Origin: a phage
Sequence record: PZ154896.1
Direction: 5' to 3' (one strand)
Length of the DNA: 64,000 nucleotides
Below, one piece after another: positions 1,731-63,954 of the stretch (position 1 is its first letter; each line of letters opens with the position of its first letter). Both the position numbers and the translations under genes were made by a program. The notes below the pieces were generated by a model. That model did not search any database. It was not told the origin of the DNA and saw only the letters and a program-made list of their open reading frames with translations.

Positions 1731-2063
1731 TCACTTATAAAGACACGGAATAGCTTTATAGTGGCATGTTACGAATTTCTGTTTAATTTCTTTAGGTTGT
1801 TTAAGACCTAAAGCCACAAATGGATGTGGAACATTTCGAATTTGTCCAACTGGTAGTGGAGTCAAATCACCGACTTCAACAAAACCTTCAGGAACATCAG
1901 GACCTACAGAATGAACTACACATAGTTCAGGAACTTCACCTTGAACACGTTTACCAATCACAAGTCCTGATTCTGTAACTTCTTCATCACCTGCTTGAGC
2001 GGGTTCAGAAACCAGAATGACATATTCACCAACAGCACGAATTGGGAGTTGTACTTCAGACAT
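1731..2063 (-). CDS. 31: gp31 co-chaperonin (GroES-like, capsid folding)
   Basis: 110 aa [29 protein letters not shown]... matches T4 gp31. Confidence 0.9.
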
Positions 2064-2120
2064 CTTATTTCCTTGTTGTTTGACGATAGATTAATAATAC
2101 CATACTATTCGTAAAGCATA

Positions 2121-2429
2121 TTACATAAGAAGCAAACGTTCTACAGGAGTACCATCAACCGAAATTACTTTATCAAGGCGGAAAGAACGCCACTGACCTA
2201 ACTTGGTGTCGAATGCTCGAACTGATTCACGAGGTTCATAACGAACTTCTGTTGCTGGATTGTTATTTTCATATTTGACTTCAAGTTCATCGCGCGAAGC
2301 AAACATAGTGCGTACCTCACCGTTAGCCTTTTCAAATACAACACAATGAACGCCTACAGACAGAATAGTTTTAATACGTTCACGAAGAACCATAGTTTCT
2401 TGTTCAGTTAAAATCATATTATTCACCAC
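2121..2429 (-). CDS. hypothetical protein (102 aa; 31.1-position)
   Basis: ORF track; position between cd and 31. Confidence 0.45.
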   Translation of the reverse strand: MVNNMILTEQETMVLRERIKTILSVGVHCVVFEKANGEVRTMFASRDELEVKYENNNPATEVRYEPRESVRAFDTKLGQWRSFRLDKVISVDGTPVERLLLM

Positions 2430-3000
2430 AAAAGTTTCGGATTTGTTCCCAATTCAGGGAACGAAGATTATTACGAGAGTACTGAATTACTTCAATACCG
2501 GCTTGTTTTAGAATGTCTGCCCAATTTTCAGGAGATCGATCGTATAATTCTGCGTATACAACCTTTTTAATACCTGACTGCGTAATAGCTTTAGTGCAAT
2601 CAGGACATGGAGAAAGCGTCGTATATAACGTAGCACCTTCAATAGAATTACCTTTACGAGCTGCAAACAAAATTGCATTCAATTCTGCATGGATTTCATT
2701 ATTAGCAGACCATGCACTATGAGCGGCCCGATGTTCTTTAGCCAAAACAAAATTATCCACCCGTCCAAATGCTGTAGTGCCTTCTTTATGTCCAGCAACG
2801 ATGACCGGGCTTGGTTTATTCTTCAACCAACCGTTTTCGGATGCATGTTCACAACAGTTAACGCCACCTGCTGGTGAGCCATTATATCCAGTAGAGATAA
2901 TGCGTCCATCTTTTTCAATGACGGCACCAACTTTCCATGAACAACATTTTGATTCTTGAGAAATCAGATATGCAATCTGAAGGTATGTGCTAGCTTTCAT
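2419..3000 (-). CDS. cd: dCMP deaminase
   Basis: 193 aa; zinc-deaminase motifs (HAELNAI...PCPDC); strong match to T4 Cd. Confidence 0.9.
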   Translation of the reverse strand: MKASTYLQIAYLISQESKCCSWKVGAVIEKDGRIISTGYNGSPAGGVNCCEHASENGWLKNKPSPVIVAGHKEGTTAFGRVDNFVLAKEHRAAHSAWSANNEIHAELNAILFAARKGNSIEGATLYTTLSPCPDCTKAITQSGIKKVVYAELYDRSPENWADILKQAGIEVIQYSRNNLRSLNWEQIRNFCGE

Positions 3001-3992
3001 TATTGAACCTTATTAATATAAGTTAACAGCTCTTTAGTTTGTTCCCAACCGATGCACGCATCGGTAACGGAAACGCCATAGGACATATTATCAGAAATTT
3101 TTTGATTTCCTTCATGTAGGAATGATTCTATCATAATTCCTTTGACAAAATCATTAGCTGCTAAATTTTTACCAATACCAATTTGATTGCTATAATACCC
3201 ATCAGCGTTTGCGTGGCTACAGTCAACCATTACATAATGATTCAGACCTAATGCACTTGCTTTGTTAGAAGCTTCTTGAATATCAGAAGAATGATAGTTC
3301 GGGCCGTTAGTCCCGCCACGCAATACGATATGCGTATTCTGATTACCTTCAGCTTCAACAATGCCTACAGTACCATCGACGTCCATACCCATATACCGAT
3401 GAGGCCAGGCGGCACTATACATCGCGTCTGTAGCTACTTTAATAGAACCATTGGTTGCGTTCTTGAAGCCTACGCACATCGGTAGACCTGAAGCAATTTC
3501 ACGATGTGTCTGACTTTCAGTCGTACGGGCGCCAATAGCAACCCATGAGAAAATACCAGAAAGATACTTAATCGTGAATGGGTCTAATACTTCAGTTGCT
3601 AATGGAAGTCCCATACGTAGAAGTTTACGACACAATGTTCGTGCAACTATAAGACCGTGGTTCATATCAAAACTTCCGTCAAGATATGGATCATTTACAA
3701 GACCTTTCCAACCTACGGTAGTTCGAGGCTTTTCAAAATAAACGCGCATCACTAACAGAACATTAGGAAGACGAGTTTGAAGTTCAGCCAGACGTTTGCC
3801 GTATTCAACAGCAGCAATAGGGTCATGAATTGAACAAGGACCTACAACAATAAGTTTGCGTGGGTCTTCACCGTTCATAATCGAATTAACTTGTTCGCGA
3901 TGAGAAGCCACTTGTGATGCGTAAGCTTCCGACAAAGGAATAATCTCAGCCAGTTCTTTTGGAGAAATAAGTTTTCTGACGACAGGTAACAT
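3000..3992 (-). CDS. 3-deoxy-D-arabino-heptulosonate-7-phosphate (DAHP) synthase, class I alpha (AroG-like)
   Basis: 330 aa with AroG hallmarks GPCSIHDP, EKPRTTVGWKGL, AIGARTTESQ.HRE, LRGG..PNY, ITDACIGWE; AT-rich phage-like codon usage; ATG with AAGGA RBS. Confidence 0.8.
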   Translation of the reverse strand: MLPVVRKLISPKELAEIIPLSEAYASQVASHREQVNSIMNGEDPRKLIVVGPCSIHDPIAAVEYGKRLAELQTRLPNVLLVMRVYFEKPRTTVGWKGLVNDPYLDGSFDMNHGLIVARTLCRKLLRMGLPLATEVLDPFTIKYLSGIFSWVAIGARTTESQTHREIASGLPMCVGFKNATNGSIKVATDAMYSAAWPHRYMGMDVDGTVGIVEAEGNQNTHIVLRGGTNGPNYHSSDIQEASNKASALGLNHYVMVDCSHANADGYYSNQIGIGKNLAANDFVKGIMIESFLHEGNQKISDNMSYGVSVTDACIGWEQTKELLTYINKVQ

Positions 3993-4112
3993 AACAATCC
4001 TTAGGAGATATAAACAGATTCTGATTCAACAATACCTTTAACCGGATTAGACAGGCTAAGTTGGTAGTGCTAAGATTTATGACCATTCTCGATAGTAATG
4101 AGATAGCTCTCA

Positions 4113-4349
4113 TTATAGTGTTCCATATACTCGAGTTGCTTCAACAAGACCATCACTGCCTAATTTAAGGCTAGTAATCTGGTCACCATCTTTAGGATTA
4201 ACGATTATGAGAAAAGAACGAGGAGATTCTTGAATAACTCGTAATGTTGCATCTTGGAAACGTTCAGACACTTTATTGATGAGTGCTTGAGCAAATTCTT
4301 TTACTTTAATCTGAAATTCGTGTACTGTAATTGGGTTTTCACTTAGCAT
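4113..4349 (-). CDS. hypothetical protein (78 aa)
   Basis: ORF track; cd/pseT intergenic small-gene cluster. Confidence 0.4.
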   Translation of the reverse strand: MLSENPITVHEFQIKVKEFAQALINKVSERFQDATLRVIQESPRSFLIIVNPKDGDQITSLKLGSDGLVEATRVYGTL

Positions 4350-4409
4350 TTCTATTTCCTCATTTGTTGGTAGAGTTATAGTATCACAACTCCACCATGT
4401 TGTAAACCA

Positions 4410-4685
4410 TTAAATTGCTTTGCATTCAATTTTTTGTGTACCGAAATTGATATCACATTGGATAACTAAATCGCCGTCAAGATCAAATACCACTATGACG
4501 TGTGCAGACCCAGGGAGAAGAGTAATAGCAATAGAATCTACTTGGTCTGGGAGCAAAGCATTGAGTACATGAGTTAGTTGAGCATGAACTCTGAGTTCGG
4601 CTGCATTATCAAGCACTTCAAACATATTATTAGCAATAATCTGACTGAAGACCACCTTTACAATTTCAGAATAAGTTGGGAACAT
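4410..4685 (-). CDS. hypothetical protein (91 aa)
   Basis: ORF track. Confidence 0.4.
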   Translation of the reverse strand: MFPTYSEIVKVVFSQIIANNMFEVLDNAAELRVHAQLTHVLNALLPDQVDSIAITLLPGSAHVIVVFDLDGDLVIQCDINFGTQKIECKAI

Positions 4686-4692
4686 AATTACC

Positions 4693-4917
4693 TCAGTGTA
4701 CAGTATTTACTTTAACTCGAACAACAAATCGCTCGGTTGGTTCACCTACAGGAACAAACTCTACATGATATTCACCTTTGTAACGAGTATTCAGATCATT
4801 ACGAATTCCTGCGAGTTTGTTGATTAATGTAGGACTCATATTAAGTCCCACTAGTTTACGAAGCATTTTGTATGCTTCATCTTCGATTTCATGATGTTTA
4901 TCGTACATAGTTTTCAT
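4693..4917 (-). CDS. hypothetical protein (74 aa)
   Basis: ORF track. Confidence 0.4.
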   Translation of the reverse strand: MKTMYDKHHEIEDEAYKMLRKLVGLNMSPTLINKLAGIRNDLNTRYKGEYHVEFVPVGEPTERFVVRVKVNTVH

Positions 4918-5088
4918 TTAACCATTCAATTGCCTGGTCGACGTTATCAAATATACTGCCGTCCAACCATTCTTCATGTTCATAGTCCAGCACATCAATA
5001 CCGAACCGTCCATTTACTAAAGGCCATACTACAAACAAATATTCTTTATGCTGTTCGATGGCCTCAATCACTTCATATAATCGTTTCA

Positions 5089-5089
<1 letters not shown>
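4898..5089 (-). CDS. hypothetical protein (63 aa)
   Basis: ORF track; abuts pseT stop. Confidence 0.4.
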
Positions 5090-6175
<1,086 letters not shown>

Positions 6176-7941: not shown

Positions 7942-9075
<1,134 letters not shown>

Positions 9076-9122
9076 TCAGTTAGTTTTTTTTAAATTGTAC
9101 CACAATCCTTGTGGCATGTAAA

Positions 9123-60441: not shown

Positions 60442-61341
60442 TTATTCCTCGATTACGACATCTTCATATTTAGGTATATTATACGGCGAAGAAATTAAAG
60501 CATTAAAGTAGATGAACTCACCAAGACCTGGATGGAATACTTCTTCAGGATTTTCGAAATATTGAATCTTCGGTCGTCCTTTAAGAATTTGATAGTACTC
60601 AGTTTTAGTTGGTTTAAAAATTCGAATCAGCGCTTCTTCAGGATACTTATTTCTGTCGAAGCTATTATTTGGATCGGTTATATAAAGCGGTTGACCTAAT
60701 TGAATTGCACATTCAACCACTTGTTCAAAACGATAACACGGGTCACTAATTCGAAATGGATGAAAAATACCATCTAGATGAATAGGAGCCAAATCACCTA
60801 CAAGACGCTGCATGATGGAAGGACGTATAACTTTCTGGGTTACGATAATCTTATTACCATCGGCACCAGCGTTAACCAGCACTTCCTTTTGACGTTTATT
60901 CAACACAGTAGTTTGAAGTGAACGATTAACCGACAGCATGTCGGTTTTTAAGAATTCGTCAATATAAAAACGTGGTTTATTAGGGTCTGCAGTGATATTG
61001 AAATTGAATTCCACATCAAAAGCGCCGTCATATCCAGTGATATCTGTGATTAGAAAATCACAATCATAATAAGCAATTAATGAATCAACAACAAATTCAT
61101 TTTCAGACCAGAAATATTTACGAGTGTTATACGCGTTATCTTTATACCATAATGGAACAAACTTAAATTCCGGAAAAAGACGTTCACATTCTTTAATATC
61201 AGATGCATTACGTGGATATGTAATCACATCACCTGGATTAGCACGGTGCAAATGAAGTTGGAAGTTGCCATCCTTAAGGATAGCATACTGTCCAGTTTCA
61301 TAAGACCGCATACTCAAGATAGGTACGCGGAAAATAGCCAT
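60442..61341 (-). CDS. hypothetical protein (299 aa) in the beta-glucosyltransferase slot
   Basis: ORF track; TAATG overlap with upstream gp42-family gene; no resemblance to T4 beta-gt. Confidence 0.5.
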   Translation of the reverse strand: MAIFRVPILSMRSYETGQYAILKDGNFQLHLHRANPGDVITYPRNASDIKECERLFPEFKFVPLWYKDNAYNTRKYFWSENEFVVDSLIAYYDCDFLITDITGYDGAFDVEFNFNITADPNKPRFYIDEFLKTDMLSVNRSLQTTVLNKRQKEVLVNAGADGNKIIVTQKVIRPSIMQRLVGDLAPIHLDGIFHPFRISDPCYRFEQVVECAIQLGQPLYITDPNNSFDRNKYPEEALIRIFKPTKTEYYQILKGRPKIQYFENPEEVFHPGLGEFIYFNALISSPYNIPKYEDVVIEE

Positions 61342-62057
61342 TAGTCAAGGAATCCTTTAACATAATCAAAATCACGTTCAAACACATGGGCACTTACCAT
61401 GGTATGAGTATAATCACCAACTTCTACACCACATTCGTTAGCGATATAATGAAGTAATTTTCCTTGGAGATAAAAATCCAACTGCATAACAACAGCACAG
61501 TTCTGAGAACGCATATGACAGTGGGTATAAAGCTTACCATCACGAATATAATAAGTCACTGAGTCAGTACATGGATATTCAAGTGTTTCGTCCGAATCAA
61601 GCAAAGCCTGATCTGAACTTTCAAGAATTTGAAACACAACTCTTCGTGAATTAGGTTTCTCTTTAAGTTCTTTTAGAAGAGCTGGTAATTGGGCCGCAAT
61701 GCGAGGACCATAGAAAGTGTTGAAGTTCGCCGGCAAAACATCTGATTTTGGTTTAGAAATAAATTTAGCGACATTAGGATATGCCTTAAACGCTTCTTCT
61801 GCGTTGGTACCGCCAGAAATCATAAACTTCCAGAAGTCTTCGGCATATTCATAAGAGATGCGGTTAATACGTGGGTCGGTCATTTTGAATGTTGACGGGG
61901 TATCAACAACTACTGTCATAGACCCAATTTCATTACAACGTCCAATACGAGAATCAGTTACGAATTCCGGGTTTTCTAAAATTTCACGATTGACTGCTTT
62001 AAATGCGGTTTGAAAATCTGCGGCTTTGATATATTTCATTGTGTTATGTTTTCCCAT
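61341..62057 (-). CDS. thymidylate-synthase/dCMP-hydroxymethylase family enzyme, divergent gp42-like
   Basis: 238 aa; NSRR phosphate site, nucleophile Cys in YPCTDS, Asp in QLDFY at the pyrimidine-specifying position (cytosine-type) but RSQN where TS has RSCD and gp42 RSND; only ~30% identity to T4 gp42 by eye. Confidence 0.65.
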   Translation of the reverse strand: MGKHNTMKYIKAADFQTAFKAVNREILENPEFVTDSRIGRCNEIGSMTVVVDTPSTFKMTDPRINRISYEYAEDFWKFMISGGTNAEEAFKAYPNVAKFISKPKSDVLPANFNTFYGPRIAAQLPALLKELKEKPNSRRVVFQILESSDQALLDSDETLEYPCTDSVTYYIRDGKLYTHCHMRSQNCAVVMQLDFYLQGKLLHYIANECGVEVGDYTHTMVSAHVFERDFDYVKGFLD

Positions 62058-62075
62058 GTTTACCTCAATACAATT

Positions 62076-62101
62076 TATTATATACTCAATTCGTAAAGCT
62101 T
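62076..62101 (-). promoter_or_regulatory. MotA-type middle promoter for the gp42-like operon (MotA box AGCTTTA, -10 TATAAT)
   Basis: MotA-box core 62093-62099 (minus) 11 bp upstream of TATAAT at 62077-62082; ~20 nt before the ATG. Confidence 0.45.
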
Positions 62102-62178
62102 ATTTGAATTTCTTGATAATGTTGATATAACGTAAAGCTTCAGCATCGATACTTCCAAGAACACTATGAAGAAATGCA

Positions 62179-62340
62179 TCAGCGTAGTATTCCAATTGAA
62201 CAGGTTTCTTTAATCACTTTAGCCGCTTTAGTTTCAAACAGGCCCATCAGGGCCTTTTTAAGAATTTGTTCGTTGCTGTTAATTTTCGTAGTCAAAATCT
62301 CTTCATTAAGTTGGTGGTTAAAAGTTTTTCTAGAAATCAT
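62179..62340 (-). CDS. possible small protein (53 aa) coupled to the upstream Cys-rich enzyme
   Basis: Manual translation MISRKTFNHQLNEEILTTKINSNEQILKKALMGLFETKAAKVIKETCSIGILR; ATGA overlap with upstream stop; contains GGCCC-ugau-GGGCC hairpin that could instead be a terminator. Confidence 0.3.
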   Translation of the reverse strand: MISRKTFNHQLNEEILTTKINSNEQILKKALMGLFETKAAKVIKETCSIGILR

Positions 62341-63497
62341 TCCGGGTACCTCAAAGCGTCATCAGAGTTAGTTATATCAATAATAGATATAGAGTTTTCT
62401 GCTAACCCGTTTTTAGATAATTGACGTTTATAATATCTTTCACAATATGTACACGTCGTCCCGCAGATTTCATTAGCACAATCGAAATCTGGATGTCTGA
62501 ACCACCTTTTTTCTAAAAAGCCATCTAACAAAGAGGTTTCAATATTTACTGTATGTGAAAACTCTGTCTCATTTTCAAGAGTGAAAATGGTCTCTAAAGG
62601 CTTCCACAGTTCTAACAAATTACCTTCAAACTTTTCAGAAGCATAAGCTTCAAGAACTTTCAAAATGTAGTCTGTGCTACCTGTACGTCCTGAAACTTTG
62701 AATTGAGTGATACCAATATCATTATAAAGTTTCAAATCTTGAGGACGAACAAAACGAGTTCTCAACCAGTTAAATGGATCTGTATCACGAGCTTTAATAC
62801 AGTGCTGCATTGGATATCCATTTAAAGATTTGGCATCATCTACTGTAACATCGGTGCTATGGAAAATATAGCAAGAGTCACGATAACTACAATGTGTTGT
62901 ATACCCTTTACCAGCATTAGAACAGAACTCATTTACAAGAACTTCAAATATTATATTGTTCTTATTACAAAACTCTGCTGCACGCTTCAGGAAAGAAACT
63001 GAACGGTTCTTATGAATTCCGCAGCAGACCTTTTTGATATTATATTGGTCATGCAAGTATTTGATTTGAGTTACAGCATCGACATGTAGAATTGTTGAAA
63101 CTTCAATCTCAATGTCTTTATTGACTTCACGAACAATTTCCATAACAACAGGGTTAGCGATAGTAATACGCCATACGCCTATTGACCAAAGATACTGAAC
63201 ATAATCCTGAATAGCTTTCTTCTTCCACTCAACTAGTTCTCTTTTTGAACCAGGATTTATCGTGTTGAGTGTATAGTTAAAGCAAATACCTAATTCGTTA
63301 CAACGTTTAACGTAATCTTCTAACATCTTTTTGTCAACGTCAGGAAGCCTAAAATCAGGTCTGGCTGCTACAAAAGCCATTTCTCTTGTAGAGCCGTATA
63401 CTTCGTTTATCAAGCTATTAGGATAAGTTTTATTGAGCTCTACGATTTTATCAAGAAGAGCTAAATCAAAATTCGTTCCGATTTTAAAAGTATTCAT
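62337..63497 (-). CDS. Cys-rich TIM-barrel-like enzyme, tentatively U32 family (RlhA/TrhP/UbiU-like)
   Basis: 386 aa; blocks GTNFDLALLDKIVEL, NPVVMEIVREV..IEIEVS and HCSYRDSC resemble U32 motifs (AG.L..L.AAI, DPG.IMLVRE..P...IHLS, C-x6-C); extra C-terminal CX4CX3CX2C cluster. Confidence 0.45.
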   Translation of the reverse strand: MNTFKIGTNFDLALLDKIVELNKTYPNSLINEVYGSTREMAFVAARPDFRLPDVDKKMLEDYVKRCNELGICFNYTLNTINPGSKRELVEWKKKAIQDYVQYLWSIGVWRITIANPVVMEIVREVNKDIEIEVSTILHVDAVTQIKYLHDQYNIKKVCCGIHKNRSVSFLKRAAEFCNKNNIIFEVLVNEFCSNAGKGYTTHCSYRDSCYIFHSTDVTVDDAKSLNGYPMQHCIKARDTDPFNWLRTRFVRPQDLKLYNDIGITQFKVSGRTGSTDYILKVLEAYASEKFEGNLLELWKPLETIFTLENETEFSHTVNIETSLLDGFLEKRWFRHPDFDCANEICGTTCTYCERYYKRQLSKNGLAENSISIIDITNSDDALRYPE

Positions 63498-63552: not shown

Positions 63553-63954
63553 TTATAGATTCGGTTTATATGATTTAAATGTTTCGAATTCGCCTTTATT
63601 CATAAGAGCTTTGAATTCGTCAGGACGCATAGCTTTGTCGTCGATAATCCAATCATATACTGGTTTATGTGTTAGCAAATTATGGTACTTCAATCCAATG
63701 TTTGCCAAGTTCTGAATCAGACTTGGGAGAATGTCAATTGCTATACGACCAGGACCTACTGACTTCATACCGCGAGCAGTGTAAAGCGTTATTGTATGCC
63801 CTGCATCATACAGGGCATTAATGGCAGACACCATTTCGACGTCTGGTTTGAAGTTCACGTAATCACGATTGTTATTCCACTCTGTTATACAATCATCGAC
63901 ATCAAAACAAAGATTAAGCATGTTTTTTACACGGTGCATTAGATTCGTTCCCAT
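63553..63954 (-). CDS. HAD-superfamily phosphatase (small, capless)
   Basis: 133 aa; motif I FDVDDCIT, motif II ITLYTARG, motif III K (HKP), motif IV IIDDK. Confidence 0.6.
   Translation of the reverse strand: MGTNLMHRVKNMLNLCFDVDDCITEWNNNRDYVNFKPDVEMVSAINALYDAGHTITLYTARGMKSVGPGRIAIDILPSLIQNLANIGLKYHNLLTHKPVYDWIIDDKAMRPDEFKALMNKGEFETFKSYKPNL

Follow-up and report, generated by a model that had tools for sequence, protein, structure and literature searches.

The stretch analysed here (referred to as the window; 64,000 nucleotides of phage sequence record PZ154896.1) stems from a Mosigvirus, one of the RB69-like T4-type coliphages, and carries directly upstream of the dCMP deaminase gene cd a gene for a class I-alpha DAHP (3-deoxy-D-arabinoheptulosonate 7-phosphate) synthase. 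The gene itself is ordinary and already catalogued. What appear to be undescribed are the loss of the regulatory site throughout the phage family of this enzyme, and the association of its gene with genes for a chorismate mutase and for an iron-sulphur (Fe-S) protein of the U32 family, the latter located in the arabinosyl-5-hydroxycytosine gene cluster. We tentatively propose that the DAHP synthase supplies prephenate for this phage U32 enzyme, although our doubts about this reading still slightly outweigh our confidence in it. Among the papers searched, none joined prephenate, chorismate mutase or DAHP synthase with phage 5-hydroxycytosine, although the link may have been published elsewhere.

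An AroF-like DAHP synthase with a remodelled regulatory site

The open reading frame (ORF) of the DAHP synthase starts with ATG, encodes 330 aa and is intact, and is thus not the pseudogene that had been considered as a possible outcome. Its product matched Pfam DAHP_synth_1 (PF00793; E=2e-74, 250 bits against a cutoff of 25.5), NCBIfam TIGR00034 (aroFGH; 426 bits, cutoff 173) and the PRK12755 subfamily (454 bits, cutoff 343), and scored below the cutoffs of the AroG equivalog model (363.6 bits, cutoff 568) and the AroH model (383.7 bits, cutoff 463). The nearest solved structure was E. coli AroF (6agm, E=3e-104), identity amounted to 51% with AroF, 47% with AroG and 44% with AroH, and position 211 (AroG numbering) is occupied by Gly instead of Ser. 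A preliminary description of this DNA had presented the protein as a full-length, AroG-like class I-alpha enzyme. Its class stands, but ~9 N-terminal residues of AroF/G/H are missing, and the identities, the AroG and AroH cutoffs and the position of the phage clade as sister to the AroF group make it AroF-like instead.

The four metal ligands (AroG Cys61, His268, Glu302 and Asp326) correspond to C53, H260, E289 and D311 of the phage protein, and were kept in five phage genera as well as in all 120 homologues checked. Likewise, the phosphoenolpyruvate (PEP) ligands (AroG Arg92, Lys97, Gly163-Ala164-Arg165, Lys186 and Arg234) are present as R83, K88, G154-A155-R156, K177 and R225, and the KPRT(S) motif for the phosphate of erythrose-4-phosphate as K88-P89-R90-T91. 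The Mosig-, Kanagawa-, Marfa-, Winkler- and Bragavirus copies have all retained these seven PEP ligands along with the KPRT motif. As predicted from sequence, the gene product is almost certainly an active DAHP synthase that condenses PEP and erythrose-4-phosphate to DAHP. An assignment to arabinose metabolism (arabinose-5-phosphate/3-deoxy-D-manno-octulosonate 8-phosphate-type chemistry) was rejected because of the KPRT motif and the metal-binding Cys of DAHP synthases, and also because Acinetobacter phages and Dhakaviruses carry the same cluster with the ThyA-like 5-hydroxy-dCMP synthase but without the DAHP synthase gene.

The catalytic motifs were thus all present as first described, but the remodelling of the regulatory site had been overlooked. 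In AroG structures, N-terminal residues contribute to the inhibitor pocket of the neighbouring subunit, and the phage proteins begin ~9 residues later than AroF/G/H. Moreover, AroG positions 150, 151, 180 and 202 are I, K, P and S in the five phage genera, as opposed to P, Q, S and A in AroG. We surveyed both features in the 120 best database homologues by comparing phage-clade members with ~95 cellular sequences. The phage clade had 8–10 residues ahead of the position of AroG residue 19 (12 in one metagenomic member), whereas the cellular homologues had 16–53. The full I-K...P signature was found in all phage-clade members except two, whereas nearly all cellular homologues carried P-Q...S; position 202 was Ser in nearly all phage-clade members, and Ala or Ser in nearly all cellular homologues. 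An N-terminal extension with an allosteric pocket for aromatic amino-acid inhibition was therefore not found anywhere in the phage clade. In AroG itself, P150L confers full feedback resistance, S180F resistance and A202T partial resistance, while Gln151 has been implicated in inhibition and S180/S181 bind the main chain of the inhibitor (PMC9529685). Because the short N-terminus and the substitutions at positions 150, 151, 180 and 202 extend across the clade, we consider it rather likely that the phage DAHP synthase is feedback-insensitive, and Tyr-sensitive regulation of the AroF type is probably absent from it.

Homologues were found with tblastn in 213 phage records (140 of them at >=95% identity), including 196 T4-like records; most records annotate the gene as phospho-2-dehydro-3-deoxyheptonate aldolase or DAHP synthase. 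The window protein is 98–99.7% identical to many GenBank entries and matched PHROG 5045 (E=1.6e-181), categorised as 'moron, auxiliary metabolic gene'. The Mosigvirus DAHP synthase has been listed among suggested auxiliary metabolic genes of unknown function (Olsen et al., bioRxiv 10.1101/2020.01.19.911818), and the copy of the Klebsiella phage KLB31 (Kanagawavirus) has been proposed to be an aromatic amino-acid auxiliary metabolic gene (PMC11845039). A literature search for experimental work on a phage DAHP synthase gene found none.

The phage copies are monophyletic (100/100 neighbour-joining bootstraps) and form a clade beside the AroF group. Their best cellular homologue reaches <=55% identity, and the phage family itself spans 57–99%. 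Pairwise ratios of nonsynonymous to synonymous divergence (dN/dS) between genera were 0.14–0.24 with synonymous sites saturated, the Mosigvirus proteins are 95–100% identical over 140 records, and the gene occupies the same slot between pseT and cd in the Mosig-, Kanagawa-, Marfa-, Winkler- and Bragaviruses. Taken together, the monophyly, the low cellular identity, the dN/dS values and the common slot suggest that an AroF-like gene was captured once, long ago, and was then remodelled and retained over a long time. With a GC content of 0.41 and a third-position GC content (GC3) of 0.29, the gene resembles the neighbouring phage genes (GC3 0.26–0.33) and not E. coli aroF/G/H (0.50–0.57). The earlier view that its AT-rich codons are phage-like is borne out by this GC3, and, together with the monophyly, the cellular identity and the synonymous saturation, so is the view that it is no recent host fragment.

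Other viruses also carry such enzymes. Dozens of giant-virus metagenome-assembled contigs (GVMAG) in IMG/VR encode class I-alpha DAHP synthases at 41–48% identity, and Aeromonas phage HJ05 and human-faecal phage contigs encode other DAHP synthases at 35–47% identity. Viruses appear to have acquired this enzyme on independent occasions.

Co-occurrence with the U32 gene and chorismate mutase

The U32-like gene had been placed 58 kb from the DAHP synthase gene, and was indeed found there (Table 1). Its protein matched Peptidase_U32 (PF01136; E=6e-11) and, distantly, the UbiU model (E=5e-4), and a PDB sequence search yielded nothing at E<=1. The U32 family of O2-independent hydroxylases includes UbiU/UbiV, RlhA (5-hydroxycytidine in rRNA, ho5C2501) and TrhP (5-hydroxyuridine in tRNA), with prephenate being the demonstrated oxygen donor of the UbiU/V pathway and the proposed donor for RlhA and TrhP (PMC10990095). 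In RB69, whose DNA carries arabinosylated 5-hydroxycytosine, the ThyA homologue gp48 makes 5-hydroxy-dCMP with flavin and O2, whereas the U32 homologue gp50 (RB69p050), whose fold was matched to that of the U32 protein 5d88, was listed only as a 'sugar or heterocycle reductase' (Lee et al. 2026, PMC13326640).

Three of the four Fe-S cysteines shared by UbiU, UbiV, RlhA and TrhP have counterparts in the phage U32 protein (C192, C203 and C209). The second one is missing, and might be replaced by C233 or by cysteines of a C-terminal CX4CX3CX2C motif (C340/C345/C349/C352), all of which were invariant in the seven phage genera aligned. The protein is unusually conserved, far more so than the products of the genes around it, being at least 81% identical across genera in which the DAHP synthase is 58–78% and chorismate mutase 33–79% identical.

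The phage U32 subfamily was found in IMG/VR only on T4-like contigs. U32 homologues at 50–58% identity lie on phage-like metagenomic contigs of 466 kb, 60 kb and 86 kb (loci at 8001-9086, 8001-9083 and 8001-9098). There, they are either immediately preceded by a dCMP-deaminase-like gene, with Tmk-like, UDG and PolIII-alpha genes close by, or adjoin NT5C, dNK and a radical-SAM/SPASM gene. ThyA-like, chorismate mutase and DAHP synthase genes were not found within 8 kb of them. These contigs may represent other phages with U32-based nucleotide modification, and their neighbourhoods would fit a U32 enzyme acting alone on pyrimidine deoxynucleotides.

Co-occurrence was counted with a chimeric query of DAHP synthase and U32 protein, which returned a union of 243 records with 436 places. 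The DAHP synthase was found in 213 records and the U32 protein in 222, with 192 records containing both, 21 the DAHP synthase only and 30 the U32 protein only. Distant, non-T4-like lineages at <60% identity (human-faecal 'Bacteriophage sp.', Acinetobacter MD-2021a contigs, Aeromonas HJ05 and a Salmonella contig) account for 17 of the 21 records with the DAHP synthase only. By subtraction, the other four (>=95% identity) would be partial Mosigvirus contigs with U32 located on other contigs. No complete T4-like genome among the 213 records had the DAHP synthase without U32. The refuting case named at the outset, in which all relatives would carry the gene but not the U32-like one, did not materialise. 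Orthologues of the ThyA-like synthase (>=60% identity) were present in 343 records, including 57 Acinetobacter phages and ~40 Dhakaviruses with neither U32 nor DAHP synthase. The DAHP synthase therefore tracks U32 and not 5-hydroxycytosine or arabinosylation in general. 

The position of the Dhakaviruses was determined with a tree of gp41, the ThyA-like synthase and the glycosyltransferase. They were nested among the U32-carrying genera, next to Kanagawavirus, and monophyly of the U32 carriers was recovered in 0/200 bootstraps. Their cluster is otherwise syntenic, but U32, chorismate mutase and DAHP synthase are all missing. In Escherichia phage dhabil (5415-9589 of the locus), the HAD/Tmk-like genes are directly followed by the ThyA-like gene, and the pair of U32 and chorismate mutase genes is absent as one block. 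Elsewhere, the DAHP synthase gene was lost several times with U32 kept (RB69, moha, Tegunavirus, Pectobacterium PM2 and Serratia 92A1), and the reverse was never seen, which is the one-sided pattern expected if the DAHP synthase were useful only with U32 present. The notion that phages of strictly aerobic hosts lack U32 holds for the 57 Acinetobacter phage records, but is weakened by the Dhakaviruses growing on E. coli.

The gene between U32 and the thyA-like gene in Enterobacter phage Entb_45 is annotated as chorismate mutase, the product of which is prephenate. The phage protein, which is small (79 aa in Kanagawavirus), matched Pfam CM_2 (2e-10) and, below their curated cutoffs, several NCBIfam chorismate mutase models, and the equivalents of R11, R28, K39, E52, S84 and Q88 of the E. 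coli chorismate mutase (EcCM) are kept in the phage proteins, as aligned to an EcCM reference sequence. With tblastn, chorismate mutase was found in 56 records from at least nine genera (with carriers among Kanagawa-, Marfa-, Winkler-, Teguna-, Mosuguk-, Kagamiyama- and Bragavirus, Providencia/Morganella phages and Shewanella Thanatos), and it directly followed U32 in 6/6 neighbourhoods inspected.

In the Mosigviruses, the corresponding slot is taken by RB69ORF049c (79 aa, phrog_8601). The homologue in the window is frameshifted by one extra A (AAAGAAACC in the window, AAAGAACC in RB69), and that of Escherichia phage HX01 is shortened, having lost 39 bp and acquired a premature stop. Between U32 and thyA, the 53-aa ORF was considered as a chorismate mutase and rejected, since it had no Pfam match, reached an hhalign probability of <0.2% even with the frameshift repaired, and belongs to another family, phrog_8601. 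As no chorismate mutase is detectable in the Mosigviruses, they would depend on host PheA/TyrA for prephenate and would themselves contribute only the enzyme of the committed step.

Genomic neighbourhood of the gene

Positions 2000-6000 of the window are 99% identical to HX01 and ~140 other Mosigvirus genomes. In the HX01 annotation, the gene order is rnlA - alc - spanins - pseT - small ORFs - DAHP synthase - cd - gp31, which places the DAHP synthase in the early nucleotide-metabolism region. The gene had been described as lying beside cd, and the two are in fact in contact, as the stop codon of the DAHP synthase and the ATG of cd overlap by one base (TAATG). Because of this overlap, the two genes are, judged by their arrangement, co-transcribed and probably also translationally coupled. 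In Winklervirus (locus 4998-5339) and Bragavirus (4957-5516), one or two small ORFs separate the DAHP synthase from cd, and the direct overlap is therefore not universal. A Shine-Dalgarno-like AAGGA is located at 4002..3998, 5 nt ahead of the DAHP synthase ATG (3992). A scan for promoters and terminators around the gene gave no more sites than shuffled sequence, and none was convincing.

RB69 lacks exactly positions 3004-4097 of the window (1094 bp), between the two copies of an imperfect direct repeat, and its state fits a deletion (or insertion) by recombination between these copies. The DAHP synthase gene is dispensable. The cd gene of the RB69 GenBank record (4743-5252 of the RB69 locus) encodes 170 aa and ends in ...ADILKPSWY, as compared with 193 aa in the window. 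The difference probably reflects a frameshift, or an error in sequencing, close to the 3′ end of this 2003 record.

The U32 gene is flanked by the ThyA-like synthase gene and by a 133-aa ORF that marks the arabinosyl-5-hydroxycytosine gene cluster. This ORF had no Pfam match, and its assignment to RB69 gp51 relies on its position and on the HX01 annotation.

Table 1. Features of the window discussed in the text, with their positions and the basis of each assignment.
Feature	Position	Strand	Basis
cd, dCMP deaminase	2419..3000	-	ORF call, profile match
Imperfect 19-bp direct repeat, copy 1 (cd start region)	2985..3003		comparison of window with RB69
Class I-alpha DAHP synthase (AroF-like), 330 aa, N-terminally short, allosteric site remodelled	3000..3992	-	profiles, alignment, tree
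Upstream leader of the DAHP synthase gene, intergenic	3993..4112	-	read from sequence
Imperfect 19-bp direct repeat, copy 2 (end of cd.2-like gene)	4098..4116		comparison of window with RB69
cd.2-like gene (DUF7320)	4113..4349		overlaps repeat copy 2
ThyA-like 5-hydroxy-dCMP synthase (RB69 gp48 homologue)	61341..62057	-	homology; beside U32 gene
Frameshifted RB69ORF049c homologue (53 aa + 31-aa tail in other frame)	62100..62340	-	alignment, phrog_8601
U32-family Fe-S protein (RB69 gp50 homologue), proposed prephenate consumer	62337..63497	-	Pfam, alignment
133-aa ORF at position of RB69 gp51 (HAD-type phosphatase, UDP-arabinose pathway; AfhF analogue)	63553..63954	-	position, HX01 'phosphoheptose isomerase' annotation

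Possible role and comparison with known systems

In the role that we tentatively favour, the DAHP synthase would be expressed together with the early nucleotide-metabolism genes (cd, pseT) and, as a feedback-free enzyme, would reopen the committed step of the shikimate pathway despite plentiful Phe, Tyr and Trp, upon which chorismate and then prephenate would rise. In most related genera, a chorismate mutase of the phage would produce the prephenate, and in this phage host PheA/TyrA would do so. The U32 Fe-S enzyme encoded beside the 5-hydroxy-dCMP synthase would then take prephenate as organic oxygen donor, and C5 hydroxylation of cytosine nucleotides would continue when O2 limits the flavin- and O2-dependent ThyA-like enzyme. 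In this scheme, we infer that the DAHP synthase is active and insensitive to feedback, which substrate the U32 protein uses and that it depends on prephenate, and that the role is an anaerobic one. Where media or gut contents offer plenty of aromatic amino acids, the host's own DAHP synthases are inhibited and repressed, a block that a feedback-insensitive phage enzyme would lift. With a genome of 169 kb at 37.8% GC, and hence ~64,000 cytosines, several million hydroxylations would be needed per infection cycle at an assumed burst of one to two hundred. That U32 with prephenate oxygen amounts to a second, O2-independent route to 5-hydroxycytosine, with the supply secured by the phage via DAHP synthase and/or chorismate mutase, is a more doubtful proposition than the supply of prephenate as such, and is put forward as a possibility. 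The preliminary description had already ventured such a supply to the U32-like enzyme, which the co-occurrence, the adjacency of chorismate mutase and the published U32 chemistry now favour, whereas a role for CmoA, which it had mentioned as another user of prephenate, was not indicated.

A number of observations weigh against the proposed role. The DNA of RB69 has been shown to be fully modified without a DAHP synthase gene, and the gene is therefore at most a booster. It is also absent in phage moha and in one vB_Eco_mar005P1 record, both of which gave a U32 match only, as well as in the Tegunaviruses, Pectobacterium PM2 and Serratia 92A1. The window contains no detectable chorismate mutase, the gene in its slot being unrelated and frameshifted, and the second of the canonical Fe-S cysteines is missing from the phage U32 protein. 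Dhakaviruses infect E. coli with the ThyA-like synthase and without U32, and the O2-independent route is therefore not obligatory for coliphages; likewise, the ThyA-like enzyme alone suffices for 5-hydroxy-dCMP in aerobic E. coli (PMC13326640). Furthermore, the DAHP synthase was probably gained once, and there is one clear joint loss (Dhakavirus), so that phylogenetic inertia explains much of the co-occurrence, which could stem from shared ancestry. IMG/VR yielded no independent lineage with DAHP synthase next to U32: a search for neighbourhoods of DAHP synthase with U32 or chorismate mutase within 10 kb on each side found none, except bacterial-type aroF-tyrA.

Genome papers usually read the gene as a general auxiliary metabolic gene (PMC11845039) that would raise the supply of Phe, Tyr and Trp, or of other compounds derived from chorismate, to phage protein synthesis with no specific tie to U32, and its PHROG category concurs. 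An apparently active, deregulated enzyme would suit any demand below DAHP, and unrelated phage and giant-virus contigs carry a DAHP synthase without U32 within 10 kb on each side. Nevertheless, this explanation appears unlikely to us, as it leaves unexplained why the gene is limited to U32-bearing genomes among T4-like phages, why chorismate mutase resides inside the DNA-modification cluster right after U32, and why all three genes are jointly absent in Dhakavirus, whereas T4 and most of its relatives, with similar protein needs, do without the gene.

Alternatively, the enzyme might serve as a carbon sink, with the irreversible drain on erythrose-4-phosphate pulling the non-oxidative pentose-phosphate pathway towards pentose phosphates (ribulose-5-phosphate to arabinose-5-phosphate, and phosphoribosyl pyrophosphate) for arabinosylation or nucleotides. 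[quoted passage not shown] Yet 57 Acinetobacter records (including the arabinosylating Lazarusvirus DLP3) and the Dhakaviruses have the same synthase and sugar cluster without the gene, and the phage chorismate mutase indicates that flux is used further down, at prephenate, which renders this explanation improbable.

A different consumer of prephenate would be the hydroxylation of host or phage RNA (of the TrhP/RlhA type, yielding 5-hydroxyuridine or 5-hydroxycytidine in tRNA or rRNA), with the phage U32 protein modifying RNA, or else the synthesis of carboxy-S-adenosylmethionine (Cx-SAM). Characterised U32 enzymes of nucleic acids do act on RNA, and some phages use prephenate via CmoA for DNA carboxymethylation (PMC12783734). 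Here, U32 is embedded between UDP-arabinose genes and the 5-hydroxy-dCMP synthase gene, and in other phage-like contigs it lies beside dCMP deaminase, dNMP kinase and nucleotidase genes, while the HX01 annotation, which covers most of the window, lists no CmoA, although no scan aimed at CmoA was made. We therefore regard such a consumer as quite improbable. Very improbable, finally, is that the gene is a dispensable passenger (moron) that currently serves no function and is retained through linkage within the hyperplastic region between cd and pseT: RB69 and several relatives lack the gene and the short flanking direct repeat would allow its clean excision, but purifying selection has been strong since the five genera diverged (dN/dS 0.14–0.24 at saturated synonymous divergence, with catalytic residues invariant) and the Mosigvirus copies have stayed 95–100% identical at the protein level over 140 records.

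It was only in 2025-2026 that the chemistry of arabinosyl-5-hydroxycytosine DNA was elucidated, and the published pathway needs an O2-dependent flavoenzyme. These coliphages, however, inhabit the largely anoxic gut, and their cluster includes a conserved U32 gene. If DAHP synthase, chorismate mutase and U32 constituted one module, three genes would be explained at once, and oxygen- or nutrient-dependent evasion of restriction and CRISPR would be predicted, which bears on phage therapy. Such a module would also take the recently discovered 'organic oxygen donor' chemistry beyond quinones and RNA to the precursors of DNA. The second, O2-independent route, if real, would represent the first prephenate-dependent hydroxylation of a DNA precursor and the first case of a virus that redirects the shikimate pathway for the sake of its genome instead of its proteins. 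Moreover, a naturally deregulated, compact DAHP synthase could help shikimate-pathway engineering.

At the sequence level, the window protein does not differ from the other PHROG 5045 DAHP synthases (Mosig-, Kanagawa-, Marfa-, Winkler- and Bragavirus), of which it is a member. With E. coli AroF (PDB 6agm/6agl) it shares identical residues at the metal, PEP and erythrose-4-phosphate sites and 51% identity over the whole barrel, both enzymes have Gly at the AroG-211 position, and the phage clade branches beside the AroF group. In contrast to AroF, the phage enzyme is without the ~9 N-terminal residues that take part in forming the allosteric site, is shortened by two small deletions close to its C-terminus, and carries Ile-Lys, Pro and Ser in place of AroF Pro151-Gln152, Ser181 and Ala203. 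Engineered feedback-resistant AroG and AroF variants (P150L, S180F, A202T, D146N and others) parallel the natural phage substitutions at positions 150, 180 and 202 and at Gln151, although the phage enzyme has Ile, Pro, Ser and Lys where the engineered ones have Leu, Phe and Thr, and Asp146 is kept.

The proposed pairing of a flavin/O2 enzyme with a U32 Fe-S protein recalls the dual systems of E. coli (UbiI/H/F and UbiU-UbiV; TrhO and TrhP; RlhA), as does the use of prephenate as oxygen donor at C5 of a pyrimidine that we propose for the phage. The phage U32 protein differs from its E. coli counterparts in being distant in sequence, in lacking the second cysteine and in carrying a C-terminal Cys cluster, and its substrate would be a deoxynucleotide or DNA. 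Whereas the cellular systems need no prephenate supply of their own, the phage would bring DAHP synthase and/or chorismate mutase along.

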